From: Chloroflexota bacterium
GTDB lineage: Bacteria; Chloroflexota; Dehalococcoidia; GIF9; AB-539-J10
Reading direction: 5' to 3'
NCBI GenBank assembly: GCA_036834125.1
Contig: DAITOK010000001.1
Location: 57,314 to 121,313, forward strand
DNA: 64,000 nucleotides
Shown: piece after piece, positions 3,844 to 51,236 of the stretch
Position numbering within the stretch: the stretch's first letter is position 1
How the letters are laid out: each line of letters begins with the position of its first letter
The notes under the pieces: model-generated
Told to the model about the DNA's origin: nothing
The model's database searches: none
What the model saw: the letters and a program-made list of their open reading frames with translations, nothing else
Position numbers and translations under genes: made by a program

Positions 3844-5328
3844 TCACGGTCTTGGGGTCTTGGAATTGGATAACTTAGTGAGGGCAGCTAAGGCAGCGAT
3901 AGCGGCTACCTTCTTCTTTTCGTCAAATATCTGAGATAATTTCTCATCCAGAGGCTTTTCCGTTTCCACGATCCTCTTCATATCTTCCAGTAAGGTGGGC
4001 TCGCTATCAATAAAGTGAGTGCTTAATTCACCTTTGACGAAACGCGGGTTCTGCATGACGGCTTTATGGAATGGGATATTCGTCTTTACTCCTACGATAA
4101 TATATTCATAAAGCGCCCGGCGCATTCTGGCAATAGCCTCATCGCGGTCTCTGCCCCAGACAATTAGCTTGGAGATCATAGGGTCGTAAGTTGGAGGTAT
4201 GGTATATCGGGTATGGACTCCGCTGTCCACGCGGATTCCGATGCCTCCCGGTGAGCGGTAGCCTCTGAGCTTGCCGGGCGAAGGAGCAAAGTTGTTCAGG
4301 GGGTCTTCGGCATTGATACGACATTCAATTGCCCAGCCACGTGGTTGTACATCCTCTTGTTTGATGCTTAATGGCAAGCCCGAAGCTATCCGTATCTGCT
4401 CCTTGACAATATCTATCCCGGTCACCATCTCTGTCACAGGATGCTCTACCTGAATGCGGGTGTTAGCTTCGAGGAAGTAATATTTGCCCTTAGAGAATAG
4501 GAACTCCATCGTTCCTGCACCCTCGTAGTTGATCCACTTGCCGGCTTTTACTGCGGTTGCACCCATCTCGGCACGGAGCTGCGGTGTGAGTGCTGGAGAG
4601 GGTGATTCCTCGATCAGTTTCTGGTGTCGTCGCTGAATAGAGCATTCGCGCTCCCCCAGATGGACCACATTGCCGTGGGAGTCGCCCAATATCTGAAATT
4701 CGATATGACGAGCGTGAGGCAAGTATTTCTCGATATAGACATCGGGTAAGCCGAATGTTGAGGCGGCGATAGCCTGGGAGGATTCCAGCGCTGCCTTCAG
4801 TTCGTCTTCATTGGCGACTATACGCATGCCGATGCCCCCGCCTCCGCCCGACGGCTTGCAGATCACAGGATAGCCGATTTCCCGGGCAGCTTTTCTGACC
4901 TCGTCGAAGTCCGCGACCGGCTCGTCAGTGCCGGGCGCCACCGGCACTCCGGCTTTCTGCATTTCCTTTCGGGCGGCAATTTTGTTGCCCATCAGTTCCA
5001 GTACCTTGCTGGATGGACCAATGAATTTAATCCCTTGCTTTTCGCAGGCATAAGCAAAGCTAGGATTTTCGGCCAGGAAGCCATAGCCAGGATGTATAGC
5101 TTGGGCACCGCACTCTTTGGCGACGGCGATGATTTTCTTGATATTGAGGTAGCTCTCTATAGCTGGGGCAGCGCCGATAAAGTAGGCTTCATCAGCATAT
5201 TTGGCAAATAAGGCATCTTTGTCCACTTCGGAATATATAGCAACAGAAGTTATGCCGAGCTCTCGGCAAGCCCGCATCACCCGTATAGCAATTTCACCGC
5301 GGTTGGCTACCAGAACCTTGTTTATCAT
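3844..5328 (-). CDS. pycA: Pyruvate carboxylase subunit A / biotin carboxylase (ATP-grasp)
   Basis: N-terminus MINKVLVANRGEIAIRVMRAC, with GGGGIGMR and EMNTR-like motifs. It sits directly downstream of the carboxyltransferase-biotinyl subunit. The ORF extends to 5361, but an ATG at 5328 gives the canonical N-terminus. Confidence 0.8.
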   Translation of the reverse strand: MINKVLVANRGEIAIRVMRACRELGITSVAIYSEVDKDALFAKYADEAYFIGAAPAIESYLNIKKIIAVAKECGAQAIHPGYGFLAENPSFAYACEKQGIKFIGPSSKVLELMGNKIAARKEMQKAGVPVAPGTDEPVADFDEVRKAAREIGYPVICKPSGGGGGIGMRIVANEDELKAALESSQAIAASTFGLPDVYIEKYLPHARHIEFQILGDSHGNVVHLGERECSIQRRHQKLIEESPSPALTPQLRAEMGATAVKAGKWINYEGAGTMEFLFSKGKYYFLEANTRIQVEHPVTEMVTGIDIVKEQIRIASGLPLSIKQEDVQPRGWAIECRINAEDPLNNFAPSPGKLRGYRSPGGIGIRVDSGVHTRYTIPPTYDPMISKLIVWGRDRDEAIARMRRALYEYIIVGVKTNIPFHKAVMQNPRFVKGELSTHFIDSEPTLLEDMKRIVETEKPLDEKLSQIFDEKKKVAAIAALAALTKLSNSKTPRP

Positions 5329-5517: not shown

Positions 5518-7251
5518 TTAGTTTTCCGGTGCTACGACTATCAAGACATCACCGGTGTTCACTACCTCGCCCTGGTAGGTAAGTATTTCCTTAACGGTGC
5601 CGCTGTGGGAGGAGACGACCTGGTTCTGCATTTTCATAGCTTCGATTATCAGCAGCGTGTCACCCTGCTTGACTCTGTCACCGACCTTCACCTTGATAGC
5701 GAGTATCATGCCTTGCATCGGTGAAGTGATGGCTCCGGCAGGAAGCTCTTTAGGCTTTTTGGCTTTTTCTTTTTCTACCTCGACAGTCTTGCCCAATACT
5801 GAAGTTACCCTGACGTTGAATACTTCGCCATCTACGTCAACGCTGAATTCCATGGGTAAGTCTAAAGTAGGAATAGCCTTGGCTGCTGCCTCGGTGGGGG
5901 AGGGCATAGCCTCCTCTTTGATTTCGCCACGCAGGAATTTCACCGCTACCTGAGGATAGAGGGCATAAGTGAGGAGGTCTTCTTCGCGATGAATAATGCC
6001 CAGCTTTTGTCCCTCTTTTTTCAGTTTGGGTAATTCCGGTTTGAGAAGGTCGGCGGGTCGAACATCTATAGGCTTCTCTTCACCTATTACTAGTTTTCTT
6101 ACCTCTTCGTTGATTTCGCCTGGTGGTTGTCCGTACTGGCCTAGAAGGTAGTTCCGTACTTCCTGTGTTACTTGTTTGTAGCGGGCTCCTGACAGCACAT
6201 TCAGGACAGCCTGGATGCCCACGATCTGGCTGGTAGGGGTAACCAGCGGCGGATATCCCAGGTCAGCCCTGACGCGGGGCACTTCTTCCAGAACCTGGCT
6301 ATATTTATCAAGAGCATTCTGCTCTCTCAGTTGGCTGACTAGATTAGAGAGCATACCACCGGGTATCTGGTGCAGCAGTACATTGATGCTGGGCCGAGTG
6401 GTCTCGGTGGTAAACAGCGCTTGATATTTCGCACTCAAGCTGGCGAAGTATTCGCCGATCTCATAGAGCAACTCTAAGTCAAGCCCGGTATCGTAAGGGG
6501 TGCCTTTGAAAGCTGCCACAATACTTTCGGTAGGCGGTTGGGAAGTGCCCCAGCTAAGAGCGGAAAAGGCGGTGTCCACGATATCCACTCCAGCCAGAGC
6601 AGCAGCATAGTAGCTTATAGGTGCCATGCCGCTAGAGCAGTGTGAGTGTAAATCCACCGGGACCTTGACTCTACTCTTGATTGCTTTTACGAGCTCTGCT
6701 GCTGCGGGTGGGGAAATCAAACCAGCCATATCCTTGATGCAAATAGAATCGCAACCTAGGCTTTCCAGTTCCCTAGCCATCTCGGCGAACTTTTCTGTGG
6801 TATGCACCGGGCTAGTGGTATAACAGATTGCCCCTTGGACATGAGCTTCATAGTCTTTGGCTACCTGTATAGCTAGCTTCATATTGCGTATGTCGTTAAG
6901 GGCATCGAAGATGCGGAAGACATTTATGCCGTTTTTCACAGAAAGGCGGATAAATTCTCTCAGGACGTCATCCGCATAGTGGCGATAGCCCACGAGGTTC
7001 TGGCCACGGAGCAGCATCTGCAGGCGAGTGTTTTTGACTTTCTCACGCAGACTCCTGAGCCGTTCCCAGGGGTCCTCGTTCAAGAACCTAATGCAGGCGT
7101 CAAAGGTAGCGCCTCCCCATACTTCTAGAGAAAAGAAGCCCACCCTATCAAGCTGTTCGGCGATAGGAAGCATGTCTTTCGTGCGCATCCTGGTGGCGAT
7201 CAGGGATTGGTGAGCATCACGTAAAGTGGTGTCTGTTATTAAAATGCCCAT
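5518..7251 (-). CDS. pycB: Pyruvate carboxylase subunit B (carboxyltransferase TIM barrel plus C-terminal biotinyl domain)
   Basis: The protein has ILITDTTLRDAHQS and a C-terminal EAMKMQN biotin attachment motif; 577 aa. Confidence 0.8.
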   Translation of the reverse strand: MGILITDTTLRDAHQSLIATRMRTKDMLPIAEQLDRVGFFSLEVWGGATFDACIRFLNEDPWERLRSLREKVKNTRLQMLLRGQNLVGYRHYADDVLREFIRLSVKNGINVFRIFDALNDIRNMKLAIQVAKDYEAHVQGAICYTTSPVHTTEKFAEMARELESLGCDSICIKDMAGLISPPAAAELVKAIKSRVKVPVDLHSHCSSGMAPISYYAAALAGVDIVDTAFSALSWGTSQPPTESIVAAFKGTPYDTGLDLELLYEIGEYFASLSAKYQALFTTETTRPSINVLLHQIPGGMLSNLVSQLREQNALDKYSQVLEEVPRVRADLGYPPLVTPTSQIVGIQAVLNVLSGARYKQVTQEVRNYLLGQYGQPPGEINEEVRKLVIGEEKPIDVRPADLLKPELPKLKKEGQKLGIIHREEDLLTYALYPQVAVKFLRGEIKEEAMPSPTEAAAKAIPTLDLPMEFSVDVDGEVFNVRVTSVLGKTVEVEKEKAKKPKELPAGAITSPMQGMILAIKVKVGDRVKQGDTLLIIEAMKMQNQVVSSHSGTVKEILTYQGEVVNTGDVLIVVAPEN

Positions 7252-11082: not shown

Positions 11083-12123
11083 ATGTGGGACGCTTCTAAG
11101 TGTAATCTATGCGGAGATTGTCTGGTCAACTGTCGGTATGTCCACTACGATAGGGACAAGGCAGTAGCTGAGATCAAGTTACTGATGGAGGGCAAGGAGG
11201 CTGAAATATTAAGCAAATGCACTACATGTATTGCCTGTAATGATTATTGCCCGACAGGGGCTGACCCTTCTAACCTGATATTCAAGATGCAAGAGAAAAT
11301 AGGTACCTCTCCCATAGTGACAATGGGCAAACCTGCCAAGGAAGCGATACAGCGAGCATTCGAAATAGGAGAGGACGCAGAACAGATTGTGCCGGGCGAC
11401 CCCGACAAGCCGGCGCTGTCACTGGACGAATTTCGCTTTGAGCAATTTCCAGAGGGGACATTCGATAGCCAGCTCTTCAGGGGTATGACCATAGTGAGAG
11501 GTAGCCAGTATGCTTCTCTTGTGGGCTATGTCCATATGGGTGGAGAGAGCCTGGCGCAGAGATATGGTCAGCGTGTCCTGGATAAACTGGCTAAACTGAA
11601 CAAAGATATAGTCTATATTCACAATGAGGGCTTCATCCTGGCGCATGTGAAGTCCAGGGGATATGGTTTCAAAGTCCGCTTTAAGTATATGCATCTGTTT
11701 GAATATCTGCGCAATTATCTGAACGCACACAAAAAAACCGTCACAAAGCTAGGTAAGAAAGTAGCCTATCAGGCTAATTGTGCGACCAGGTGGATCCCTG
11801 AGTATGATGCCTTTCTGGACGAGGTATTCAAGGTTGTGGGCGTGGAAAGACCCGCCAGGAAATACGAGCGGCTGAATGCTGTTTGCTGTACTGCTCCGCT
11901 TATTTATGTTAACCGTGAGCTCGCCGTTGATATTCAGAGGAAAAATTTTGAGGACGCCAGCGCTTGTGGGGCTGAGGCTATTATAACCTCGTGTCCTGTA
12001 TGCTACAGAGTGTTCAGGCGACCAAGCGTGGACTTTGGTCTGCCCAGCATATTTATCACTGACCTCTGCCGAATTGCGCTTGGCGAAAAACCATGGCCAA
12101 GAAGTACCCGGTCAGCGAAATAA
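11083..12123 (+). CDS. Fe-S oxidoreductase with an N-terminal 2x[4Fe-4S] ferredoxin and a C-terminal CCG cysteine-rich domain (HdrD/GlcF-like)
   Basis: CNLCGDCLVNC and CTTCIACNDYCP ferredoxin motifs, plus CCTAPL and TSCPVC CCG-domain motifs. A strong AAAGGAGAG RBS precedes it. Confidence 0.65.
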   Translation: MWDASKCNLCGDCLVNCRYVHYDRDKAVAEIKLLMEGKEAEILSKCTTCIACNDYCPTGADPSNLIFKMQEKIGTSPIVTMGKPAKEAIQRAFEIGEDAEQIVPGDPDKPALSLDEFRFEQFPEGTFDSQLFRGMTIVRGSQYASLVGYVHMGGESLAQRYGQRVLDKLAKLNKDIVYIHNEGFILAHVKSRGYGFKVRFKYMHLFEYLRNYLNAHKKTVTKLGKKVAYQANCATRWIPEYDAFLDEVFKVVGVERPARKYERLNAVCCTAPLIYVNRELAVDIQRKNFEDASACGAEAIITSCPVCYRVFRRPSVDFGLPSIFITDLCRIALGEKPWPRSTRSAK

Positions 12124-12451: not shown

Positions 12452-12784
12452 CTAAGGCTTGAATAGCCTGTGCCACCATCTTTGCTTAGGGGTCTGCTTA
12501 GGGGCTTCCAGCAGCAATAAGCGTTGTTCCAGAAATTCAGCCTTAGCTTTCCAGTAGCCAACTTCCTGAGACAGTTGCTCTATTCTGTTGATAAGGGGCT
12601 GGATACCCAAGGTGTTATCTGAAGACGGCTTTTCGAGCGGGGGTAAATCCTCAATGATGTACGAAGGACCGAACTTGGTTGGCACTAGGCGGGCTTTGAC
12701 CTTGCCGGACTTGATGTAGCGACGGAGAGTGATCACTGAGATGCCCAGGGCTTGAGCGGCTTCCTTCAAGGTGTAGCCAGCCAT
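12452..12784 (-). CDS. Excisionase/MerR-type helix-turn-helix DNA-binding protein with a C-terminal coiled coil
   Basis: YTLKEAAQALGISVITLRRYIKSGKV is an excisionase-family HTH; it lies downstream of the tRNA-Lys 3' end. Confidence 0.55.
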   Translation of the reverse strand: MAGYTLKEAAQALGISVITLRRYIKSGKVKARLVPTKFGPSYIIEDLPPLEKPSSDNTLGIQPLINRIEQLSQEVGYWKAKAEFLEQRLLLLEAPKQTPKQRWWHRLFKP

Positions 12785-12880
12785 TTATTATATTGTAGCA
12801 CTTGGTGGGGGTGTTGAAAATGGGTTTGGTAAAGGCTGACGAGGGGTTGGTGTGCGGAGCGTGGGTATGTGGATCAGAAG

Positions 12881-12953
12881 TAGGCCGTGCAGGACTCGAA
12901 CCTGCGACACCCTGATTAAAAGTCAGGTGCTCTGCCAACTGAGCTAACGGCCC
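12881..12953 (-). tRNA. tRNA-Lys (anticodon TTT)
   Basis: A 73-nt cloverleaf: acceptor GGGCCGT/ACGGCCT, D arm GCTC-AGTTGGCA-GAGC, anticodon loop CTTTTAA, T loop GGTTCGAGTCC. No CCA is encoded. Confidence 0.85.
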
Positions 12954-12977: not shown

Positions 12978-13253
12978 CTATTTTTCCTCTGACAGAAGGT
13001 TTGAAATATAGAGAGCAAAGGCAGGGTGAATATCGCAGATAAAACCTCCGTCAACCGCTTCTACAGAGAATGTTACCCGGCTGGGCTTCTTGACAGGGTC
13101 GCCGAATTTGTTGAGTCCTATCTCATCCCAGGGCATGTGGTGACCTAATATTTCCAATAATCCCTTAACATCTCGCGGGTTTTCCACAATCACTTCGAAA
13201 GGAAGGTGACGGGCTAACCCCGATAGTTGGTCGTTATTCAGCTTTACTCTCAT
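12978..13253 (-). CDS. Hypothetical 91-aa protein between two tRNA genes
   Basis: An intact ORF starting 38 nt downstream of tRNA-Gly; I recognise no family. Confidence 0.35.
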   Translation of the reverse strand: MRVKLNNDQLSGLARHLPFEVIVENPRDVKGLLEILGHHMPWDEIGLNKFGDPVKKPSRVTFSVEAVDGGFICDIHPAFALYISNLLSEEK

Positions 13254-13291: not shown

Positions 13292-13363
13292 AGCGGGTGA
13301 TGGGATTCGAACCCACGACGTCTTGCTTGGGAAGCAAGCACTCTACCGCTGAGTTACACCCGC
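13292..13363 (-). tRNA. tRNA-Gly (anticodon CCC)
   Basis: A 72-nt cloverleaf: acceptor GCGGGTG/CACCCGC, anticodon loop TTCCCAA, T loop GGTTCGAATCC. Confidence 0.85.
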
Positions 13364-13414: not shown

Positions 13415-14650
13415 CTATGGTGGTATGAGTGTCAACAGCCTTCTGGCAATTTTGGGATATTTGGCAATAAATAGCAATTCATCCTCGACCAGTGGTTTTT
13501 GCGCTTCGACATTAGCGTATCTTACTAATTCTAGGATTTCTTCAGCTTCCTTAGCGTCTTTAAACTTTATCTCCATCCGTCCCATTATATGGCTGAAGCC
13601 AGATACTCCACCGTATTCTCCGGAACATATCTCGCGGCCAGTCTCGACAAGCTCGGGTTCGCCTCTGCCCAATTCGTCGTAACTGTATAGTTCGTAGTTA
13701 TGGGGATCTTTCAGTACACCATCGGCATGGATACCGGAGCTATGAGCAAAAGCATTAGCGCCGACGCCAGGCTGGTTTATGGGAATAGGCACCTTGAAAG
13801 CATAGCTAGCAAATTTGCAGATCTTCCAAGCCTTTGTCAGGTTTATGGGCATGCCGAGCTGGTATTTCCCTGCGAAGCCTTTGGATTTGGTGACAGCGAG
13901 GACCGTAGCTACAAGGTCGGCATTGCCAGCTCGTTCGCCGATTCCGTTGACTGTAGTATTGATGTAAGCATCTTGTCCACCGTCTATAGCTCCTTTGGCT
14001 CCAGCTATAGAATTAGCCACTGCCATACCTAGGTCACCATGACAATGGAGCTCAATAGGCATTGCTACATGTTTGGCTATTGTTTTTACAGTCTCGTAAA
14101 TAGTAAAGGGGTTGTCATATCCTAGAGTATCGCAATACCTGAACCGGTCAGCACCATGTTCTTTAGCGGCTGAGGCAAATTGAATTAGAAAATCTATATC
14201 AGTTCGGGAGGCATCTTCAGCGTTTACGCCTATACTTTCAGCTCCATGAGCGCGGGCAGCATCCACTGCCTCGGTCATCATCTTTATAATATCCTCTCGC
14301 GTTTTCTTGCCCAGAAATTTTCCCCGGATCATTTGGTCCGATGTAGAAATAGAGAGATTAAGATGCTTGAGGTTGGGAACATACTCGAAAGCCTTTTCCA
14401 CGTCTTCGGTAACTGCTCTTAGCCACCCTCCTAAGCGGATGGGTTTGAGAACTCCCATCTCAGCTAATTCCAGATTTGCCTGTAGATAAAAAGATTCGTG
14501 TCTGGTTGTGGGGAAGCCAAATTCTGACTGGAAGACACCCATTTCGTTTAGGTAGAGATTAATCATGGTCTTTTCCAGCTTGGATAGACCAAGACGTGCA
14601 GTTTGGACGCCATCACGATTAGTAACATCTATGAAATAAAGCTTGCTCAT
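13415..14650 (-). CDS. HMGL-like 2-isopropylmalate/homocitrate/citramalate synthase family enzyme (Re-citrate synthase candidate)
   Basis: FIDVTNRDGVQ (the DRE-TIM metallolyase N-terminal motif) and LHCHGDLGMAVANSIAGAKGAIDGGQ (the HxH metal site). The ORF is open to GTG 14665; ATG 14650 gives MSKLYF. Confidence 0.75.
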   Translation of the reverse strand: MSKLYFIDVTNRDGVQTARLGLSKLEKTMINLYLNEMGVFQSEFGFPTTRHESFYLQANLELAEMGVLKPIRLGGWLRAVTEDVEKAFEYVPNLKHLNLSISTSDQMIRGKFLGKKTREDIIKMMTEAVDAARAHGAESIGVNAEDASRTDIDFLIQFASAAKEHGADRFRYCDTLGYDNPFTIYETVKTIAKHVAMPIELHCHGDLGMAVANSIAGAKGAIDGGQDAYINTTVNGIGERAGNADLVATVLAVTKSKGFAGKYQLGMPINLTKAWKICKFASYAFKVPIPINQPGVGANAFAHSSGIHADGVLKDPHNYELYSYDELGRGEPELVETGREICSGEYGGVSGFSHIMGRMEIKFKDAKEAEEILELVRYANVEAQKPLVEDELLFIAKYPKIARRLLTLIPP

Positions 14651-14862
14651 TTTTGCTTCCCGCACAAGGGTGAAATTGAATTAAGAAGGATAGCATTATT
14701 CGTTCAAATTATCAAGTTTTGGCTCCATCAGATTGTCTATTCTGATGTTAAACTCTAAAAGTAAGGCAAAAGATTTTTAAGTCGAGCAGGATGATACAGA
14801 CGGCACTGTAGATACTCTCCAACTCTTCCTTTGCTTTCGTAATTTAGATTATACTAATCTCA

Positions 14863-15948
14863 ATGCAATCGGGTATGGCTAAAGTGGTGGAATGGCTTGG
14901 TGACAAGCTGAGGATACTAGACCAAAGCAAGCTCCCCTGGGAGGAGTGCTTTATTGACCTGGACGATTACCAGGATGTTGTTTTGGCGATTAAGGAAATG
15001 AAAGTTCGTGGGGCACCAGCTATTGGAGTAGCGGCTGCCTATGGCATAGCCCTAGGGACATCGAGCATTAGAACAAGGAACAAAGATGAATTTCTGGCAG
15101 AACTGGATGAGATTATACAAGCCTTTGGTGCAGCCAGACCTACTGCTGCAAACCTCTTTCAAGCTATTAGCAAGATGAAGAAGGTGGCTAGAGGGGACAG
15201 CGTTGTGGAAATGAAGAAGTCGCTGGTCAGTGAAGCTAAGCAGATTCATGAAGATGAAATAAAGGCGACTGAAAAGCTTAGCCAGCTAGGAGCCCGGCTT
15301 ATCAAAGACGGTTGTACCGTGCTTACTCATTGCAACACAGGTCCTCTAGCCACCGCTGGCTATGGCACTGCTTTAGGAGTCATCAAAGCTGCTAAAGAAC
15401 AAGGGAAAAAAGTGCAAGTCTTTGTCACGGAGACACGTCCGCTTCTGCAAGGAGCGCGGCTCACTACCTGGGAACTAATGCAAGAGGGCATCCAGGTGAC
15501 TTTGATTACCGATTCCATGCCTGGCTATTTTATGACGGAAAAGAAAATAGACTGTGTCATTGTCGGTGCAGACAGGATTGCAGCCAATGGCGATGTTGCC
15601 AATAAAATTGGCACCTATGCTCTGGCAGTGCTGGCTAAAGAGAATAACATCCCTTTCTACGTGGCTGCTCCCACCAGCACTGTTGACCTGTCTTTAGCTT
15701 CGGGGGAAGAAATCCCCATTGAGGAGCGAGCCGCGGATGAGGTAACACATATCCAGGGAATGCCGATTGCTCCTGCGGGTGTGAAGGTAGCAAATCCTGC
15801 TTTCGATATTACTCCCCAAGGGTACATATCTGCCATTATCACTGAGAAAGGCATAATAAAGAAACCCTACTCGGAGAGACTAAAGAGGCTGGCTTCAGAT
15901 CTCTGTAGCGATTCGATCCATCGAACATTTGTGCCGCGACCGGGTTGA
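14863..15948 (+). CDS. mtnA: S-methyl-5-thioribose-1-phosphate isomerase (eIF-2B alpha/beta/delta family)
   Basis: CNTGPLATAGYGTALGV, VGADRIAANGDVANKIGTY and RLTTWELMQEGI are MtnA-type motifs. Confidence 0.75.
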   Translation: MQSGMAKVVEWLGDKLRILDQSKLPWEECFIDLDDYQDVVLAIKEMKVRGAPAIGVAAAYGIALGTSSIRTRNKDEFLAELDEIIQAFGAARPTAANLFQAISKMKKVARGDSVVEMKKSLVSEAKQIHEDEIKATEKLSQLGARLIKDGCTVLTHCNTGPLATAGYGTALGVIKAAKEQGKKVQVFVTETRPLLQGARLTTWELMQEGIQVTLITDSMPGYFMTEKKIDCVIVGADRIAANGDVANKIGTYALAVLAKENNIPFYVAAPTSTVDLSLASGEEIPIEERAADEVTHIQGMPIAPAGVKVANPAFDITPQGYISAIITEKGIIKKPYSERLKRLASDLCSDSIHRTFVPRPG

Positions 15949-23692: not shown

Positions 23693-26116
23693 ATGAGATT
23701 TGTGAAATGGTTCGAAGAGATTGGAGCAAAAGATGTAGCTCTGGTTGGTGGTAAGAATGCGTCTCTGGGTGAAATGATAAGGAGTCTGAGTAGGAAAGGA
23801 GTAAACATTCCCCCGGGGTTTGCTATTACTGCTGAGGCGTATAAGTATGTGTTAGAAAAAGCAGGAATAAGTCAAAAAATCAAGGAAATTCTGACTGACC
23901 TAGATACACATGATATAGAGAATTTAGCAGAGAGGGGTGAGAAGGTAAGGAATTTGATAGCGCATAGTCCTTGCCCCAAGGATTTAGAAGACGAGATAAG
24001 GATTAGTTATCGGAAGATGGAGGAGAGATTCGGTAAGAATGTTGATGTGGCTGTGAGAAGCAGCGCTACTGCAGAAGATTTGCCTACAGCGTCGTTTGCG
24101 GGACAGCAAACGACGTATTTAAATGTGCGTGGAGAAGATGACTTATTGGAAAAGGTTATGTACTGCTTTGCATCTTTGTTCACGAACCGCGCAATTTCCT
24201 ATCGGGTAGATAAAGGATTTTCTCATTATGGCGTTTATATCTCGGTAGGGGTACAGAAGATGGTCCGCTCTGACCTAGCTTGTTCTGGTGTTATGTTTTC
24301 TATAGACACAGATTCAGGCTTTAAGGATGTAGTTTACATAACTGCAGCATATGGGCTTGGGGAGAATGTGGTACAGGGGATTGTTGACCCAGACCAGTTC
24401 TATGTTTTTAAACCTACTCTAAAACAAGGGTTCAGACCAATTGTGGAAAAGAAACTAGGGACGAAGGAAAAGAAATTGGTCTACAGCGGAGACGGAGCAG
24501 GAACGGAGCAAAAGGAAGTAGAGCTTGAAGAGCGAAAAAAATTCGCCTTGAATGAGGATGAGATTCTGACTCTAGCTAGATGGGCATGCATTATAGAGGA
24601 ACATTATGGGTTGCCCATGGATATTGAATGGGCTAAGGATGGCATAAGTGGCGAACTTTTCGTGGTCCAAGCCCGACCAGAGACGGTACATTCTCAAAGA
24701 GATGTAGCAGTTCTCAGGACTTATGTGCTGGAAGAGGAAGGAAAATTGCTGCTCAAAGGCGAAGCAGTAGGGACAAAGATAGGGCAGGGTGCAGTGAACG
24801 TAATAGAAAGCAGTAGTGATATCCATAAATTCAAGAAGGGGCAAGTTTTGGTTACGGATATGACTGATCCTGACTGGGAGCCGATAATGAAGATTGCTAG
24901 TGCGATAGTGACAAACAAAGGGGGCAGGACGTGTCATGCTGCTATCGTTAGTCGGGAGCTAGGGGTGCCTTGCGTAATTAGCACCGGTAGGGGGACAGAG
25001 GTATTGAGGGGGGTGAAAGATGTCACAGTAGATTGCTCACGAGGCGAGGGCAGGATATACGAAGGGAAATTGAAATACAAAATAGAAGAGATAGAAGTAA
25101 GCAAACTGCCCAGACCTCGTACCAAGATAATGATGAATTTGGGTATTCCCGATGGGGCGTTTGTGCAGAGCCAGATTCCCAACGACGGAGTGGGGCTAGC
25201 TCGTGAAGAGTTCATCATCAATTCCTATATCGGCATACACCCTATGGCGCTGATAGAGTATCCTAAATTAAAGGAAGCAGCGAAAGGAGATAACAAGCTA
25301 GCCAAAGTAGTTAAAGAAATAGACGAGAGAAGCGCCATGTATCAGAATAAGAGGGAGTTCTTCATTGATAACTTAGCTATGGGTATAGCCAAAATAGCTG
25401 CCGGTTTTTATCCCAACGAAGTCATTGTGCGTTTTTCTGATTTCAAGACAAATGAATATGCTAATTTAATTGGCGGGTATCTGTACGAACCGAAGGAAAA
25501 CAATCCTATGATTGGCTGGAGGGGAGCATCCCGCTATTATGATGGGAAGTTCAAACCTGCTTTTGGTTTAGAGTGCCTAGCGATAAAGAAAGTGCGTGAT
25601 GAGATGGGGCTGACCAACGTTAAAGTGATGGTGCCTTTCTGCCGGACTCCCGAAGAAGGGAGGAGGGTGATAAGAGCCATGGAAGAGTTTGACTTAAAGC
25701 AGGGAGAAAATGGGTTAGAAGTTTATGTGATGTGTGAGATACCTTCCAATGTGATTTTGGCTGAAGAGTTCGCTGACATATTTGATGGATTCAGTATAGG
25801 GTCGAATGATTTGACGCAATTAACTTTAGGTCTGGATAGAGATTCAGCACTTGTGGCGCATATATTCGATGAAAGAAATGAGGCAGTGAAGAGGTTAGTG
25901 AAGCAGGTGATAAAGGCGGCACATAATCACAAACCGCGGAGAAAGATAGGAATATGTGGTCAGGCGCCGAGTGATTTTCCTGAATTTGCCGACTATTTAG
26001 TTGAATGTGGTATAGACTCGATGTCTTTGAACCCTGACGTGGTATTGTCAACAAGGTTAAATATTGCAAAGGCGGAGGAAAAAATAAAGTCGAGAGCCAA
26101 GCAGAAGCGGTCATGA
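23693..26116 (+). CDS. ppsA: Phosphoenolpyruvate synthase (pyruvate, water dikinase)
   Basis: An 807-aa protein with an N-terminal ATP-grasp, central phospho-His (GGRTCHAAIVSRELGVPCV) and C-terminal PEP-utilising TIM barrel. Confidence 0.85.
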   Translation: MRFVKWFEEIGAKDVALVGGKNASLGEMIRSLSRKGVNIPPGFAITAEAYKYVLEKAGISQKIKEILTDLDTHDIENLAERGEKVRNLIAHSPCPKDLEDEIRISYRKMEERFGKNVDVAVRSSATAEDLPTASFAGQQTTYLNVRGEDDLLEKVMYCFASLFTNRAISYRVDKGFSHYGVYISVGVQKMVRSDLACSGVMFSIDTDSGFKDVVYITAAYGLGENVVQGIVDPDQFYVFKPTLKQGFRPIVEKKLGTKEKKLVYSGDGAGTEQKEVELEERKKFALNEDEILTLARWACIIEEHYGLPMDIEWAKDGISGELFVVQARPETVHSQRDVAVLRTYVLEEEGKLLLKGEAVGTKIGQGAVNVIESSSDIHKFKKGQVLVTDMTDPDWEPIMKIASAIVTNKGGRTCHAAIVSRELGVPCVISTGRGTEVLRGVKDVTVDCSRGEGRIYEGKLKYKIEEIEVSKLPRPRTKIMMNLGIPDGAFVQSQIPNDGVGLAREEFIINSYIGIHPMALIEYPKLKEAAKGDNKLAKVVKEIDERSAMYQNKREFFIDNLAMGIAKIAAGFYPNEVIVRFSDFKTNEYANLIGGYLYEPKENNPMIGWRGASRYYDGKFKPAFGLECLAIKKVRDEMGLTNVKVMVPFCRTPEEGRRVIRAMEEFDLKQGENGLEVYVMCEIPSNVILAEEFADIFDGFSIGSNDLTQLTLGLDRDSALVAHIFDERNEAVKRLVKQVIKAAHNHKPRRKIGICGQAPSDFPEFADYLVECGIDSMSLNPDVVLSTRLNIAKAEEKIKSRAKQKRS

Positions 26117-37809: not shown

Positions 37810-39294
37810 TCAGGAGCATTTTGCTAAGTCTTTGCTTGGAACTCTTTTGAGGTGTCTCTCGGTATTGGTCAGCACTAAATTGATGGCGTTAGCAGCAGCA
37901 GCAAACGAAAAATACACAGGCAAGCCGGAAGAAACACAATTACAAATAGCATGAAAAATAGCTTCAGCCTCTTGCGGTACGATGCTGGGTTCCAGCACCA
38001 TTGCTACTGGTTTTGATAACAGTCCTTGCTTTACAGCAAACCTGCTCATCAACACCTCTAAATGGTTTTCGGCAATACGAGAGGTTGTGAATTGTCCTGT
38101 CCGTATGAACATGATAAAGAGATCGTTTCCTTCCCACTTTGAAAGAATGTCAAGTGTTTTGATTACACCTTCGAGGTTAAACATAGCCTGCGAATAATCT
38201 ATGGGATTGCGCAGAATGTTGCCTGCGATGGGAGTGAACTCTCGTATCTGGGCAATAATTTCTGGAGGAAGTGGCGGAATTCTCAGTCCTCTCCTTTCAA
38301 ACTCGTCAGCGATTAAGACGCTAGCTCCACCCCCAGCACCGAATAGTACCGCATTCCTACCTTTGGGGAGAGGCAAAAACAGAAGTGTAACCAATACATC
38401 GGTCATTTCTTCAATGCTGCTGACATTGATAATTCCTAATTGTTTACAAAGGGCATCCCAGGTGGTTCGGCTTCCCGCAAGTGCTGCAGTATGACCGGCA
38501 GCTGCCCGAGCACCTCCCTCGGTAAGTCCACCCTTGAGCAGTATCACTGTCTTTTCCTCTGTTGCCTGCTCCAGAGCTCGTCGGAATCGCTTCCCATCTT
38601 TAACCCCTTCAATGTAAAGAGCTATTATTTTGGTGTCGGGATCGTGGGCAAGATACTCGAGCAAATCACTTTCATTAATGTCACATGCGTTTCCGTAACT
38701 TATGACTTTGCTGAAACGGACACCTCGCAATGCTGCCTGTCTGACTAGATAAATGGAATTGCCGCCACTTTGGCTGATGACTCCTACTGTCCCTCTTTCC
38801 TTAGGAAAGGCGGGAGTAAATGATAATCGTGAGTCGGGACAATAAATGCCCATACAATTAGGTCCAATAATTCTGACCCCGGTCCTTCGGGCAATCTCTA
38901 CCAGTTCAGATTCCAACTTTATTCTTGACTCTTCACCGGTTTCACTGAAGCCGGCTGTGCAAAAGTGAATTGCTCGGACTCCTTTTTCGGCGCATTCTTC
39001 TACAAGCTTAGGGGCGACTTGGGCATTAACCAAGCCGATCACATAATCCACGTTACCCGGGACATCTTTGAGACTCGTATAAATCTTGTGCCCTTGAATC
39101 TCCCCACCCTTGGGATTAACAAGATAAAGAGGGCGGTCGAATTCAAATTCCATAAGCCCTTCGAAGAAGGTGCGTGTCCAGTGCCAGGTCTCTGCAGTTG
39201 TAATACCTACGAGAGCGATAGAATTAGGGTGAAACAAAAAATCTAAGTCGTGTTGATACGTATTATTCATCTTATTCATATTACCTACCAGCAA
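37810..39294 (-). CDS. ADP-forming acyl-CoA synthetase alpha subunit (CoA-binding plus CoA-ligase domains, phospho-His)
   Basis: IALVGIT CoA-binding and GKDGKRF motifs, with GGLTEGGARAAAGHTAALAGS as the catalytic His loop. There is no ATP-grasp beta domain. Confidence 0.65.
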   Translation of the reverse strand: MLVGNMNKMNNTYQHDLDFLFHPNSIALVGITTAETWHWTRTFFEGLMEFEFDRPLYLVNPKGGEIQGHKIYTSLKDVPGNVDYVIGLVNAQVAPKLVEECAEKGVRAIHFCTAGFSETGEESRIKLESELVEIARRTGVRIIGPNCMGIYCPDSRLSFTPAFPKERGTVGVISQSGGNSIYLVRQAALRGVRFSKVISYGNACDINESDLLEYLAHDPDTKIIALYIEGVKDGKRFRRALEQATEEKTVILLKGGLTEGGARAAAGHTAALAGSRTTWDALCKQLGIINVSSIEEMTDVLVTLLFLPLPKGRNAVLFGAGGGASVLIADEFERRGLRIPPLPPEIIAQIREFTPIAGNILRNPIDYSQAMFNLEGVIKTLDILSKWEGNDLFIMFIRTGQFTTSRIAENHLEVLMSRFAVKQGLLSKPVAMVLEPSIVPQEAEAIFHAICNCVSSGLPVYFSFAAAANAINLVLTNTERHLKRVPSKDLAKCS

Positions 39295-39528
39295 CGCTTT
39301 ATTGTTTCAGTAAACCCCGAAGTATAGCAAATAAGTTATGGATTGTAAATTTCACCGCAACTCGAGAATTCGTTCTCGCAGCAACTGTCGCTTCGATAAC
39401 AATGTTGATAGCGAGGCGGGGTTGTGGTAGATTTTTTAAGTTTTTCGGAAAGTTGGATAATTGTATGGAATAGTCTTGCTGCGACCTGGTCATAACTTGA
39501 GCCATGGTTCTAAATTCATTACTTCGCA

Positions 39529-41004
39529 GTGGTAAATAAGGACCGGCATTTGGAAAAGCAAAGGCTTAATAGATTTGAATATATTTTCCATCCCAGAACA
39601 GCAGCTGTAATAGGAGCTTCTGAAAGCGACGGTTTTTCGCAGGCTTTAATGGGCACGAAGCTGCGAGACAATGTGTTCTTTGTTAATCCTAAGTACAAGG
39701 AACTCCACGGTAAGAAATGCTACGCCAGTATTCTAGACATAGAAACTGAAATTGATTATGTCATTATAGCTGTGCCGGCACAGCATGTGCCCAGTGTGTT
39801 AAGTGAATGCATTAAGAAGGGAGTGAAGACAGTTCACATCTTCACGGCTGGTTTTAGTGAAACGGGAATAGAAGAAAGGAAGGCTTTGGAAGACCAAATA
39901 CGAGAGATGGCTAGAGGTAAGGTCAACCTGATTGGTCCTAATTGCATGGGAATATGTTGTCCAAAATCAGGTTTAGCTTTTATTCCAGATGTGTTAGTTG
40001 AGGAAGGTCCTGTGGGGGTGATTTCACAAAGCGGCACCTTCGCTGAGCAGTTCCTGTCTATCGGGAAGCTCAGAAATGTGAGGTTCAGCAAGGTTATAAG
40101 CTACGGGAATGGTATAGACCTCGACTGTCCGGATTTTCTGGAATATTTGGCGTACGATGTCGGGACGAAGGTTATTGCCTTGTATATAGAAGGGACGAGA
40201 GATGGGAAGCGACTCAAAGCTGCTATGACCGAAGCTGCTAGGTTAAAACCGGTAGTGGCACTTAAAGGGGGAGTAACTGAACATGGTCGTCGCGCAGCGT
40301 CTTGTCATACAGGTTCATTGGCTGGCTCACCAGAAATCTGGAGTTCGTTTTTTAGACAGGCGGGCGTACTGCAGGTTGAGGACTTTGACGAATTACTGGA
40401 CACAAGTTTGGCGTTGTCCTGTGTTTTGCCTCCTGAAGGAAAAGGGACTGCTATTATTACCAACTCTGGTGGTTTTAGTGTGCTGGAAACAGACCTATGT
40501 GTAAAAGTGGGATTGGAAGTCCCTCAGTTTACGAAAGAAACAATGACCGAATTGCGTAAGATGGTACCGGTAGCGGGGACAAGTATAAACAACCCACTGG
40601 ATGCTTGGCCGATATACTACAATACCCCTGGGACATCAGGGACACTTGCCGATGCTATCAAGGCGTTGTCCAATGACAGGAATATTCACTGCATAGTATT
40701 GCACTTTGACGAGGTGCGTTACTTGCGACATGTGTTTGGGGAGGCGACCGAAGGCTTTTTGAAGGAACTTGTGAAGATTATGATCCAAGGGTGCAAGTAC
40801 GCTCGAGATGAAGCAGGGAAGGCTGTGGTAATTTGTGTCTCACTCGATGCTTATTCAGAGGATGAAGAAGACAGAAAGTATCACCTACTTGTCAAGAAGG
40901 CTTTTGAAAGGGAGGAGTTCCCAGTATATCCCTCGTTAGCTGCGTGTATCAAGGTTTTATTCAACCTATACCGGTATCATCGGCAGCGCCTTATGCTAAT
41001 CTAG
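39529..41004 (+). CDS. ADP-forming acyl-CoA synthetase alpha subunit paralog
   Basis: The same architecture, with GGVTEHGRRAASCHTGSLAGS. It is divergent from its paralog. Confidence 0.65.
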   Translation: MVNKDRHLEKQRLNRFEYIFHPRTAAVIGASESDGFSQALMGTKLRDNVFFVNPKYKELHGKKCYASILDIETEIDYVIIAVPAQHVPSVLSECIKKGVKTVHIFTAGFSETGIEERKALEDQIREMARGKVNLIGPNCMGICCPKSGLAFIPDVLVEEGPVGVISQSGTFAEQFLSIGKLRNVRFSKVISYGNGIDLDCPDFLEYLAYDVGTKVIALYIEGTRDGKRLKAAMTEAARLKPVVALKGGVTEHGRRAASCHTGSLAGSPEIWSSFFRQAGVLQVEDFDELLDTSLALSCVLPPEGKGTAIITNSGGFSVLETDLCVKVGLEVPQFTKETMTELRKMVPVAGTSINNPLDAWPIYYNTPGTSGTLADAIKALSNDRNIHCIVLHFDEVRYLRHVFGEATEGFLKELVKIMIQGCKYARDEAGKAVVICVSLDAYSEDEEDRKYHLLVKKAFEREEFPVYPSLAACIKVLFNLYRYHRQRLMLI

Positions 41005-41137
41005 TGTCGCTGACGCTGCTGGCTCCTGCTGGGCTTATACCATGCTTGGGCGGCTACAGTTGCGGCTCAATGGCAAGCTTAGCTTCTCCGTTACCGCGGC
41101 CAGGACGGGAATGGCTGCCTAGCTATGCGGTGCAGCT

Positions 41138-42271
41138 TCAAAGCAATCCAATCTTGCGGGCCACTATCTCTTTATGGAAGTCGGTGTTACCGAAGGCGAG
41201 ATCTGCGGATTTGCTCCTGCGGTAATAAAACGATATGTCATGGTCGGCACTCGTACCAATTCCCCCGTGTAGTCTGACTGCCCATTTACTGACATCCTTG
41301 TACACTTCGTTGACGTATGCCTTTGCCATGGAGGCTTCCTTAGCGCAGGGAAGTCCTTGGGACTCCATCCAGGCTACCTTATACGTTAGATAACGGCTCG
41401 TTTCCATTGCTGTCCACATGTCAGCCATCTTGTGTTGAAGCGCTTGGAAAGCACCTATAGGTCGCTCATATTGGACCCTTTCTTTCGAATAAGCCACGGT
41501 CATTTCTACACAGACCTCTATGGCACCAACGGACTCAGCGGACTTGATGATGGCGCCTTTACGTAGTATTGTTTCCACAAGAGGCCAGCCCTCGTCGAGC
41601 TTGCCGATGATGCTTCCCTTGGGGACAGTAACGTTGTTAAAACTTACCTCGCATAGCTTGTCGTGGGCGATGGTGGGCATGACCTCGCACCTTACGCCGG
41701 GGGCTTTCGCATCCACCATAAAGATGGTGACTCCCTTCTCAGGAGAAGAGCCTTCTTTTGTTCTTGCGACACACAGGATATAGTTGGCAACATGTGCCAT
41801 TTCCACGAATAGCTTTGTGCCATTTATGATGAAATCATTTCCTTTGGGAGTGGCTTTGACAGTGATTCCCGAGGCGTCGAAAACACCTTCGCTTTCCAGT
41901 AAAGCTGTAGTTAGAATTAGTTTGCCCTGAGCTATCTTGGGAAGAAAGTCCTTCTTCTGCTCCTCTGTTCCTGCCTCGAGTATAGGGAAAGTGCTGGTTA
42001 TGGTCGCTATCAGCGGCCCAGGGAGAATATTTCTACCTATCTCTTCCATGAGGATAACAAGATCGAGGAAGCTATAACCCATGCCCCCGTATTGCTCAGG
42101 TATTATGAGTCCCATCCAGCCCAGTTCAGCCATCTTCTTCCAGACCTCTGGAGAGTATCCCTGGTCGCTCTGTTCCAGTTTTCTTACCAGCGTCTTGGGG
42201 CATTCCGTGGTAAGAAAATCTCGCGCCATTTTCTTCAGTATTTCTTGCGTTTCACTAAGTCTAAGATCCAT
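41138..42271 (-). CDS. Acyl-CoA dehydrogenase
   Basis: The three-domain ACAD fold, with a C-terminal catalytic Glu region (HGGIGTSADHDI). Confidence 0.8.
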   Translation of the reverse strand: MDLRLSETQEILKKMARDFLTTECPKTLVRKLEQSDQGYSPEVWKKMAELGWMGLIIPEQYGGMGYSFLDLVILMEEIGRNILPGPLIATITSTFPILEAGTEEQKKDFLPKIAQGKLILTTALLESEGVFDASGITVKATPKGNDFIINGTKLFVEMAHVANYILCVARTKEGSSPEKGVTIFMVDAKAPGVRCEVMPTIAHDKLCEVSFNNVTVPKGSIIGKLDEGWPLVETILRKGAIIKSAESVGAIEVCVEMTVAYSKERVQYERPIGAFQALQHKMADMWTAMETSRYLTYKVAWMESQGLPCAKEASMAKAYVNEVYKDVSKWAVRLHGGIGTSADHDISFYYRRSKSADLAFGNTDFHKEIVARKIGLL

Positions 42272-42302
42272 TGATTGATTCCTCCTTATCGCAAGCTTCG
42301 GT

Positions 42303-43487
42303 TTATCTTATTCTAGGTAAGCCAAGTCCATACCAGGCGATGATGTTTCTTTGAATTTCATTTGTTCCCATGGAGACGGTAGTTATGAAGTGCTCATGGT
42401 ACATCCTTTCCCATATCCCGTCCAAAGGAGCCCACCGGGAAGTCTTAACCTGCCCGTAGGGTCCCAGGATGTCCGTAGCCAGAAAAGCGAAACGCTCGCC
42501 CAGCTCGCTGAAGAAGATTTTGCCTGCCGAGGCATCCATCAAGGACATCTCATTTCTGTTCTGCAGGTCGGCAACACGATATGCTAAGGCGCGAGCTGCC
42601 TCCAGCTGGCAAGCTAGCTCAGCCAGTCGGTTACGAACGAGCGGATTCTTAGCCAGCGGTTGTCCGTGTCGTTTGGTCTCATTGCAGTATTTGACTAGTT
42701 CTTCGAGTGCACGGAACATAGTCATGATTTCGTTTATCCCAGATCTCTCGAAACCAGCCAGAAGATTTACCACTGCCCAGCCCTCATGTTCTTGACCGAC
42801 AATGTTTTTGGCTGGCACATGAACATCATCGAAGTAAACCTCACAGTAGGGAGTATGGCCATCCAGATAGGGGATGGGTCGTACCGTAATCCCAGGTGTC
42901 TTCATGTCGAGCAAAATAAAGGTCATATTGTGGTGTTTTCGACCAGCGGGATCGGTCTTAAACACGCCGAAGCCCCAGTCAGCCCGATGAGCACCGGTAT
43001 TCCAGGTCTTCTGACCGTTTATGACATATTCGTCGCCTTTCCTGATCGCGGTGGTGGTCAAGGAAGCGAGGTCCGAACCAGCATTGGGTTCGCTCCAAAG
43101 TTCACACCACATGACTTCTCCTCTGGCGATGGGGGGTAAGAATTCTCTCTTTATTTCTTCACTAGCAGCCTGGAGCAATGTCGGTGCCAGCATTTGCACC
43201 CCAAAGATATCTACCCCCGGAATGCCGTAATATCCTCTGGCTTCAGCAAAAAGAACGCGGTCCATCATGTCGCCCTTGCCACCATATTGCGCTGGCCAAC
43301 CTAGCGCGAGCCAGCCTTCCTTGGCGAATTCCTTGGCGCAGTAGAGGTGATATTTCCAGCATTCGTCGTCTTCAAAGATGGTTTCCAATCCTACAAAGCT
43401 GGCTGGCTTCTTCTTTTCGAGTTCTTTGCATTTGTCATAGAATTGCTGTCTACGAACCTTCTGTTCTTCTGTAAGAGAAAAATCCAT
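42303..43487 (-). CDS. Acyl-CoA dehydrogenase family protein
   Basis: N-terminal, middle and C-terminal ACAD domains; 394 aa. Confidence 0.75.
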   Translation of the reverse strand: MDFSLTEEQKVRRQQFYDKCKELEKKKPASFVGLETIFEDDECWKYHLYCAKEFAKEGWLALGWPAQYGGKGDMMDRVLFAEARGYYGIPGVDIFGVQMLAPTLLQAASEEIKREFLPPIARGEVMWCELWSEPNAGSDLASLTTTAIRKGDEYVINGQKTWNTGAHRADWGFGVFKTDPAGRKHHNMTFILLDMKTPGITVRPIPYLDGHTPYCEVYFDDVHVPAKNIVGQEHEGWAVVNLLAGFERSGINEIMTMFRALEELVKYCNETKRHGQPLAKNPLVRNRLAELACQLEAARALAYRVADLQNRNEMSLMDASAGKIFFSELGERFAFLATDILGPYGQVKTSRWAPLDGIWERMYHEHFITTVSMGTNEIQRNIIAWYGLGLPRIR

Positions 43488-44328: not shown

Positions 44329-44802
44329 TTAAGCATTGGTTCTGGGAGAGAATATGTACACGGTTGCTGTTTTGAGCTTCCGTCTTAGCAAGGCTAATTG
44401 TGGCTTATATAACCTAATTCTTCTTTCTTGGCATACGACAGGCATGTTAAGCATTATTGATATTATTTTCTCCTCTGCGTTTCCTCCGCATATTACGGTT
44501 GCTTCGTTTTGATTTGCTCCCAGCTCTATAAGAATTGGCAACGGCAACGCCTCTTGTTCTTCCGGCTCTAATAGGCTTGCTAAATATTGAAGCTCACTTC
44601 TCTTGAAGAAATGGGTGCTGCCATCATTACATAACACATAGGGATATTGTTCGTTCAATAGAGTTGATAACCGTTTTTGGCTCTGAGGCACCCCAGCATT
44701 TACAACCCTGAGCTCACCTCTTAGGCATTCTTGGAGCATCTTTTCGCAGAGAGATTGTCCCGATTGTGTCTGTGAAGGCTCGTTTTCTAATGGCTTGGGC
44801 AT
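44329..44802 (-). CDS. Hypothetical 157-aa protein co-transcribed at the 3' end of the A-ATPase operon (possibly DUF61/UPF0216-like)
   Basis: It starts 4 nt after the subunit D stop. The suggested resemblance to the archaeal UPF0216 family rests only on the pattern ...LL.EQYPYVL.NDGS.HFFKRSEL.YLASLL, recalled from memory and not verified. Confidence 0.45.
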   Translation of the reverse strand: MPKPLENEPSQTQSGQSLCEKMLQECLRGELRVVNAGVPQSQKRLSTLLNEQYPYVLCNDGSTHFFKRSELQYLASLLEPEEQEALPLPILIELGANQNEATVICGGNAEEKIISIMLNMPVVCQERRIRLYKPQLALLRRKLKTATVYIFSPRTNA

Positions 44803-44806
44803 TGTT

Positions 44807-45442
44807 TTATCCGCGGACGACCAGCACTTTAACGCGTTTCAGCCGTGCTTTCTCTTCTCTATCTCTTTCCTCAAATTTCATATTCAAGTAATTTATCGTC
44901 GCTTGTAACCCTGGGATTATTATATACTCCAGAGCGTTGGTTATCCTTTTCGTCCTATTTATTTCCATAGCTAGTAATTCAAAGTTCCTCTGAAGCTCAG
45001 CCAATTCTACAATGGCTCTCAGACATTCCCCAGATAGCTGCGCAGCATGGTCTAGCCAAGAGGATGTATCAACCGGGTTATACCTTTTCATCCCGCCTTT
45101 GTTGGGACTATCTTGGAGTTCCAAGGATGGTACTCGTACACCGGCTATGCTTCTTGAGCCAGCGGTAATTTTTAGCTCACTCTCAGTAGCTATCAGTTCC
45201 TTGTCCAGTGCTATGTAGCCGTGATATCCAGAGGCAACTGAAAGTGCTTTATAAAGGTTGGAAAATTCGTCCAGCAATTTTCTTTTAGCTTCCACTGTTT
45301 CTCTAGCTGTTTGCAGGAATTCCATAGTCAATATGGAAAGCCTGTCTTTTACGATTTTTTGTATTCTTCGTGCTAGCGAAAGTCGGCGTTTTAGTTTTAT
45401 CAGCTCGATCTTTGTTGGCCTGACTTTGATCAATTCTGGCAT
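44807..45442 (-). CDS. atpD: A/V-type ATP synthase subunit D
   Basis: A coiled-coil protein; MPELIKVRPTKIELIKLKRRL. Confidence 0.8.
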   Translation of the reverse strand: MPELIKVRPTKIELIKLKRRLSLARRIQKIVKDRLSILTMEFLQTARETVEAKRKLLDEFSNLYKALSVASGYHGYIALDKELIATESELKITAGSRSIAGVRVPSLELQDSPNKGGMKRYNPVDTSSWLDHAAQLSGECLRAIVELAELQRNFELLAMEINRTKRITNALEYIIIPGLQATINYLNMKFEERDREEKARLKRVKVLVVRG

Positions 45443-45453
45443 TTTCTTTGCAT

Positions 45454-46857: not shown

Positions 46858-46967
46858 AATAGCCTCCTTTTATGAAAACCTGATTACCACCCCGATTAAA
46901 TTGGTAAAAGCTATCTTTTATCTTGGTCTTTAAGAATTTTAGCTTTGACATTGTTCGGGGTTTGTAT

Positions 46968-48713: not shown

Positions 48714-48762
48714 GTCTTTATCCTCCTATCTTAAAAAACATTACGTGCTTTCATCATGATTT

Positions 48763-49116
48763 TCAAATTTCCACTTCAAATCCAATGGATTCTCGGATAA
48801 GCCTTCTGTAGTATTTTCTGACATCTGGATATTTTGTGCCAGACTTGGACGGAACCTCTACAATTATCGGAGTTATCCCTTTTCTTTTCCTGACCGCGTT
48901 CATGAGGTCTTCAACATACTGGGCATAATCTTCTGACATGATCACTATGCCCACATCGGGTTCGCCTAACAGCTCGGTCATGACTCTCCTGACATCGTCA
49001 CGGATGTCATGACCGCTTTTTATGGTGTAATATTTACTGATGCCGGCTAGCCTTAGTGCGTTGACTAGTTCTTCATCTCCTATTACAGCTATATCTAGGC
49101 GTTTAATGGGTATCAT
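48763..49116 (-). CDS. atpF: A/V-type ATP synthase subunit F
   Basis: A 117-aa protein starting IAVIGDEELVNALRLAGI. Confidence 0.75.
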   Translation of the reverse strand: MIPIKRLDIAVIGDEELVNALRLAGISKYYTIKSGHDIRDDVRRVMTELLGEPDVGIVIMSEDYAQYVEDLMNAVRKRKGITPIIVEVPSKSGTKYPDVRKYYRRLIRESIGFEVEI

Positions 49117-49117
49117 G

Positions 49118-50152: not shown

Positions 50153-50161
50153 AACATTACC

Positions 50162-50743: not shown

Positions 50744-50756
50744 TTTCAGTATGCTC

Positions 50757-51218: not shown

Positions 51219-51236
51219 ACTATTTCACACTCCTTT

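Follow-up and report, generated by a model that had tools for sequence, protein, structure and literature searches.

A gene named as a homocitrate synthase in relatives probably encodes a Dehalococcoides-type Re-citrate synthase in an uncultured Dehalococcoidia lineage

A Re-face-specific citrate synthase (Re-citrate synthase, Re-CS; EC 2.3.3.3) was reportedly described from Dehalococcoides by Marco-Urrea et al. in J Bacteriol in 2011 (193:5171). The recombinant enzyme of Dehalococcoides mccartyi CBDB1 is said to have made citrate from oxaloacetate and acetyl-CoA, to have required Mn2+, and to have been Re-specific and without homocitrate synthase activity. The Re-CS type of Clostridium kluyveri was reportedly described by Li et al. 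in 2007. The CBDB1 enzyme is among the few experimentally validated metabolic genes of D. mccartyi (PMC4720418), and the KEGG Orthology entry for Re-citrate synthase activity is K05942 (according to PMC11964587). Publications on the enzyme family, on its presence in Dehalococcoidia and on its misannotation already exist (Hug 2013, PMC3971608; Layton 2025, PMC12016533), and the value of our analysis therefore lies in annotation and not in discovery. In this paper we investigate a minus-strand gene at 13415-14665 of a 64,000-nucleotide stretch of contig DAITOK010000001.1 (positions 57,314 to 121,313 of assembly GCA_036834125.1; hereafter the window), which comes from an uncultured member of the Dehalococcoidia. 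A first-pass annotation, made from the sequence alone, had proposed that this gene may encode the organism's citrate synthase. Our results support this proposal, and the gene very probably encodes a Re-CS of the Dehalococcoides type.

We come to this conclusion because the protein is 71% identical to the CBDB1 enzyme (cbdbA1708, CAI83711), groups with it at 99% bootstrap, carries the same clade motifs and scores below the cutoffs of the NifV, LeuA and CimA models. The reference sequences, including CAI83711, were taken from Table S1 of PMC12016533 (Layton et al. 2025) and compared by BLASTP. The alignment with CAI83711 covers the full length, residues 1-410 on 1-404, with 581 bits, and in the MAFFT alignment the identity is 72%. 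Re-CS of the Thermoanaerobacter, Heliomicrobium and Clostridioides difficile type are 36-39% identical to the window protein, and those of the C. kluyveri and Syntrophus type 27-29%. The gene had been placed in the family of both the Dehalococcoides and the clostridial Re-CS. The D. mccartyi part of that claim stands, whereas the C. kluyveri enzyme, at 28.7% identity, represents a different lineage.

Homologues were drawn from 1.84 billion representative proteins, and full-length representatives were aligned with the references for a neighbour-joining tree with 200 bootstrap replicates. The group with 99% support consists of the window protein, Dehalococcoidia homologues and the CBDB1 enzyme. 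The wider clade has 100% support, and neither the other two Re-CS lineages nor the references for LeuA, NifV and CimA fall within it. A phylogeny with these reference families had been suggested as a check, and no clustering with LeuA or CimA is seen in it. The close homologues, at 74-88% identity, all come from Dehalococcoidia/Chloroflexota metagenome-assembled genomes (MAGs), and some of those that are 85-86% identical already carry the label 'citrate (Re)-synthase' in IMG. From a scan of genome contigs we kept 80 related loci of MAG relatives with 74-84% identity, D. mccartyi not being among them. The 80 genome-derived orthologues form a shallow group in which CBDB1 is nested, with no deep paralogue split.

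The annotation as it stands in the databases points to another function, that of a genuine homocitrate synthase, which would condense 2-oxoglutarate with acetyl-CoA for the FeMo-cofactor or for a 2-oxoacid elongation or alpha-aminoadipate pathway. The NifV model TIGR02660 is indeed the top NCBIfam match of the protein (E 8.7e-80), and the NCBI and IMG names of the homologues are mostly 'homocitrate synthase'. The score on this model is 268.7 bits, however, far under the cutoff of 462.9, the identity to a bona fide NifV is 33%, the well supported clade of the window protein is separate from NifV, and the orthologue CAI83711 is a characterised Re-CS. As the first-pass annotation had noted for leuBCD and nif, we find no leuBCD, ilv or nif gene, either in the window or in the inspected 81 kb of its parent contig. 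In ENA this is the metagenome contig ERZ27245459:k141_156562 of 158 kb, on which the window lies in reverse complement; a record coordinate is obtained as 91172 minus the window coordinate. We regard a homocitrate synthase as very unlikely.

Similarity to leucine biosynthesis enzymes raises the question whether the gene could encode a short-form 2-isopropylmalate synthase (IPMS) or citramalate synthase that lacks the regulatory domain and acts in the leucine or isoleucine pathway. The window protein does share its superfamily with these enzymes, LeuA-type subfamily models recognise it with E-values of 1e-57 to 1e-71, and the nearest solved structures by sequence are IPMS (3rmj). But the equivalog models all score far under their cutoffs, at best 207 bits against at least 532 for LeuA and 115 bits against 450 for CimA (TIGR00977). 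The protein is 31.5% identical to the LeuA reference and 24% to the citramalate synthase of H. modesticaldum, its clade is separate, and it has no LeuA_dimer domain. There is no leu or ilv context near the gene, and an Rfam search upstream of it detected no T-box or other leader RNA. We give this explanation hardly any probability.

The Pfam scan finds only two domains in the synthase, the HMGL-like (DRE-TIM) catalytic TIM barrel (PF00682, E 1.1e-48; 13832..14641, minus strand) and the HCS_D2 post-barrel helical subdomain (PF22617, E 1.2e-09; 13550..13765, minus strand). The lack of the LeuA C-terminal regulatory domain, and a length of about 411 residues, had been correctly recognised before. 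The same is true for the assignment to the HMGL-like synthases with a DRE-TIM N-terminal motif, here DVTNRDG at residues 8-14, and an HxH metal site, here H202-C-H204. The N-terminal substrate/metal motif in its longer form, DVTNRDGVQT (residues 8-17; 14600..14629, minus strand), is invariant in the CBDB1-containing clade, and the metal-binding HxH motif reads HCHGD (His202 and His204; 14033..14047, minus strand). In an alignment of 60 family members, R12-D13 and H202-C-H204 fall in columns with a conservation of at least 90%. Arg12 would be the 2-oxoacid ligand and Asp13 a metal ligand. Gly205 is common only to the closest clade members including CBDB1, with Asn or Asp in other members.

A set of signature motifs, defined in this analysis and without a published definition, describes the clade further: DVTNRDGVQT, SEFGFPTTxHE, GW(I/L)RA, HCHGD, NTTVNG and NQPGVG. 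Between the window protein and CAI83711 they are identical or conservative, and the references for LeuA, NifV, CimA and the other Re-CS types deviate from them. Instead, DTTLRDGEQ and HxH(N/D)D are found in LeuA, in NifV and in Re-CS of the Thermoanaerobacter type, and DTTFRD in the C. kluyveri type. The AlphaFold2 model of the synthase (pLDDT 94.6, pTM 0.91) shows the eight beta/alpha repeats of the barrel. Its best fold matches in the PDB are homocitrate synthase (HCS), methylthioalkylmalate (MAM) synthase and IPMS, with full-length superposition at TM 0.85, and 6ktq, a catalytic-domain-only HCS structure, can be superposed along the whole model (TM 0.85). The predicted model and the PDB search thus confirm the fold but do not discriminate the substrate specificity, and in two PDB searches no matched entry was named as a Re-citrate synthase.

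The active site also bears on the question whether a protein of the Re-CS clade might have drifted to another 2-oxo-dicarboxylate or to a broader range, with a conventional Si-citrate synthase encoded elsewhere in the genome. Our genome inspection covered 81 kb of the contig, in which no citrate-synthase-family gene was found, a result that is uninformative either way. The window's synthase gene does not adjoin aconitase-family or isocitrate dehydrogenase (IDH)-like genes, and three MAGs have two Re-CS-clade loci each. On the other side, the duplicates are 81-99% identical and form no separate subclade, and the active-site motifs are identical or conservative relative to the characterised CBDB1 enzyme. 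We consider such a drift in specificity to be highly improbable.

The paired loci of these three species-representative MAGs are L025/L036, L053/L072 and L065/L067, with identities of 81%, 87% and 99%. They could be recent duplications or mixed-strain bins. Hidden paralogy was rejected, since the copies are this similar and lack a subclade of their own.

A further result of our comparison with related genomes concerns the neighbours of the orthologue. In 13 of the 80 loci it directly adjoins LeuC-like and/or LeuD-like genes and a dehydrogenase gene. The arrangement is co-directional with short gaps in ten loci (L035, L037, L043, L045, L048, L056, L063, L073, L074 and L076) and convergent in three (L053, L065 and L071). 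The neighbouring dehydrogenase scores 351-390 bits on IDH models compared to 214-234 bits on LeuB models, and in 12 of the 13 loci it has the motif GFRS[AV]NV[AT]LR, which we take to correspond to Ser113 and Asn115 of E. coli IDH, the site for the gamma-carboxylate of isocitrate. The D. mccartyi IDH that has been validated on isocitrate is found in an operon with putative tricarboxylic acid (TCA) cycle genes, and a separate isopropylmalate dehydrogenase (IPMDH) is part of the leucine operon (PMC4720418). The first rank of the IDH models for the neighbouring dehydrogenase, its S-x-N motif and these two operons in D. mccartyi suggest that the 13-locus cluster is a module that would lead from citrate over isocitrate to 2-oxoglutarate.

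If the synthase were a homocitrate synthase, the LeuCD-like and dehydrogenase neighbours would be a homoaconitase and a homoisocitrate dehydrogenase, an interpretation to which we assign the same low probability as above. The LeuC-like neighbour does pass the 'homoaconitate hydratase family' subfamily model (544 bits vs 386), and the dehydrogenase reaches 335 bits on the homoisocitrate dehydrogenase model. Against this stand the top scores on IDH models, the IDH-type S-x-N motif and the validation of the TCA-operon IDH on isocitrate, which applies to D. mccartyi only. LeuC-like and LeuD-like neighbours in some relatives could equally be taken in favour of a short-form IPMS or citramalate synthase, but the dehydrogenase next to them is IDH-like and not LeuB-like, and the IPMDH of D. 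mccartyi lies separately in its leucine operon. The cluster as a leu operon or as a homocitrate elongation pathway was therefore rejected on the model ranking and the motif of the dehydrogenase.

These findings lead to a wider hypothesis, for which we see somewhat less than an even chance, namely that within the IPMS/HCS superfamily the Dehalococcoides-type clade may represent a third Re-CS lineage that became specialised independently, with its own active site and a compact LeuCD-IDH-Re-CS cluster. The active site would, tentatively, be distinguished by Asn11 and Val15, which replace the Leu and Glu of DTTLRDGEQ, and by Gly205, which replaces the Asn after HxH. The cluster might then combine LeuCD-type aconitase-family genes with IDH and Re-CS in some uncultured Dehalococcoidia, and would make 2-oxoglutarate.

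The window protein is a member of this family with its fold and motifs, and it is an orthologue of a characterised enzyme. From this we infer the substrate, the stereochemistry, the metal and the physiological role in this organism. As a metal-dependent Claisen-condensing member of the DRE-TIM (IPMS/homocitrate synthase) superfamily, from which the mechanism is transferred here, the enzyme would hold a divalent metal by Asp13, His202 and His204. Oxaloacetate would be bound to the metal via its C1 carboxylate and C2 carbonyl and positioned by Arg12, and acetyl-CoA would be enolised and attack the Re face of the C2 carbonyl. Hydrolysis of the citryl-CoA thioester would then yield citrate and CoA. 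With oxaloacetate presumably supplied by pyruvate carboxylase, the enzyme would stand at the head of an oxidative branch in which citrate is converted to isocitrate and then to 2-oxoglutarate, to serve the biosynthesis of the glutamate family. Such a role has been described for D. mccartyi, with pyruvate carboxylase as the sole route to oxaloacetate and no gltA-type gene in published models (PMC2930330), and it has also been predicted for other Dehalococcoidia-related genomes (Hug 2013, PMC3971608).

There are several points that weigh against our assignment as a Re-CS. Firstly, an identity of 71% in this superfamily is no guarantee of the same substrate specificity. Secondly, single residues are missing at a few positions of CAI83711, apparently lost when the sequence was extracted from a PDF, and the 2011 findings on the CBDB1 enzyme are cited here second-hand. 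And thirdly, the public names of the close homologues mostly favour a homocitrate synthase, and neither aconitase nor IDH genes were found in the 81 kb of contig inspected.

The open reading frame (ORF) at 13415-14665 on the minus strand was confirmed and has 416 residues when counted from the GTG at 14665. Most likely this GTG is only the mechanical start of the ORF and the ATG at 14650 is the biological start, which places the coding sequence of the predicted Re-CS at 13415..14650 (minus strand, stop included) with a product of 411 residues. We favour the ATG because a Shine-Dalgarno-like GGGAAG can be read 5 nt upstream of it (14656..14661, minus strand), because the 411-residue product is identical to the public protein P0001, and because the N-termini of the homologues, all of the form M-x-K-I/L-Y/F, align with it. 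Promoter and terminator scans gave site numbers no higher than in shuffled sequence.

The proposal of a citrate synthase had been based in part on an anaplerotic context, with pyruvate carboxylase and phosphoenolpyruvate (PEP) synthase in the same window. Both are present above the cutoffs of their NCBIfam models. Pyruvate carboxylase subunit A (PycA, biotin carboxylase; 3844..5328, minus strand; NF006406, 840 bits vs cutoff 739) adjoins subunit B (PycB; 5518..7251, minus strand; NF006761, 888 bits vs cutoff 402), and PEP synthase, assigned by an equivalog model, is found at 23693-26116 on the plus strand. They lie 6-9 kb from the synthase with unrelated genes between, and the divergent upstream neighbour of the synthase is MtnA (14863-15948). 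Among the 80 related loci the neighbours of the orthologue include pyruvate carboxylase in none, PEP synthase in two and mtnA in eight. Because the arrangement is not conserved, the proximity of pyruvate carboxylase and PEP synthase is no evidence for function. The anaplerotic context is metabolically sensible, but as evidence it does not hold. Pyruvate carboxylase is probably a metabolic partner that supplies oxaloacetate and not an operon partner.

Directly downstream of the synthase, on the same strand, are the genes of tRNA-Gly(CCC) (13292-13363) and tRNA-Lys(UUU) (12880-12953). A near-consensus sigma-70-type promoter, TTGACA-18-GATAAT with 11/12 matches (13402 to 13373, minus strand), begins 12 nt past the synthase stop codon and ends just upstream of tRNA-Gly. 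Between both tRNA genes there is a 91-residue ORF (12978-13253, minus strand) with no Pfam or NCBIfam match that is present in 4 of the 80 related loci, and tRNA-Lys is followed by a 110-residue HTH_17/MerR-like ORF of the excisionase type (12452-12784, minus strand). These two ORFs might be what is left of an element that had integrated at a tRNA gene.

The window also encodes, at 11083-12123 on the plus strand, a 346-residue protein of the heterodisulfide-reductase/LldE type that carries Fer4_8 and cysteine-rich CCG domains; among the NCBIfam models it matches only LdhH, and that weakly. The A/V-type ATPase operon at 44329-53270 on the minus strand is complete, with subunits I, c, E, C/AC39, F, A, B and D. 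At 37810-43487, two divergent CoA_binding/Succ_CoA_lig proteins of about 485-495 residues adjoin two acyl-CoA dehydrogenases; they look to us like ADP-forming acyl-CoA synthetases and would point to an acyl-CoA metabolism of the fermentative kind. On the parent contig, about 4 kb past the right end of the window, the region 14487-15665 of L087 codes for a 392-residue protein in which Pfam recognises Tubulin and CetZ_C domains. CetZ-type tubulins are mainly archaeal.

The assignment as a Re-CS corrects the name 'homocitrate synthase NifV', a misannotation that persists, for the genome of an uncultured member of the Dehalococcoidia. In a metabolic reconstruction it fills the otherwise missing citrate-forming step, which would open an oxidative TCA branch that pyruvate carboxylase feeds and that leads to 2-oxoglutarate. 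Two minor observations are new: in a subset of the relatives the orthologue lies next to aconitase-family and IDH-like genes, and the clade has signature motifs that could be used as a rule for annotation.

When we compare the window protein to the known systems, the catalytic TIM barrel, the metal ligands and the Claisen-condensation chemistry are common to it and LeuA, from which it differs by its missing C-terminal regulatory domain, its separate clade and the absence of a leu operon. NifV (TIGR02660), the best-scoring curated model, shares with it the fold, the HCS_D2 subdomain and the absence of the LeuA regulatory domain, but the nif context is absent at the window locus, and the substrate of the window protein would be oxaloacetate and not 2-oxoglutarate.

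The Re-CS of C. kluyveri and Syntrophus aciditrophicus (CKL_0973, SYN_02536) belong to the same DRE-TIM superfamily and have the reaction and stereochemistry that are predicted for the window protein. They possess an N-terminal extension of ~40 residues, DTTFRD, and insertions after CDTxG, and form a distinct clade with 100% bootstrap. The window protein lies outside this clade, so that a different lineage is predicted to perform the same reaction. The Re-CS of Thermoanaerobacter, Clostridioides difficile and Heliomicrobium modesticaldum (Teth514_0415, AksA and HM1_2993; PMC12016533) share the superfamily and a similar length. The reaction proposed for them is the same, at the entry to the oxidative TCA branch, and they have likewise been misannotated as homocitrate synthase. 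They differ in their separate clade near NifV-like sequences and in their canonical DTTLRDGEQ and HxH(N/D)D motifs. The window gene comes from an uncultured Dehalococcoidia lineage and not from D. mccartyi, and the window additionally carries the A/V-type ATPase operon, the acyl-CoA dehydrogenases and the CoA-ligase-like genes. With the CBDB1 Re-CS, nevertheless, the window protein is collinear over the whole length of about 410 residues, and the two share the same domain set and the same bacterial class.

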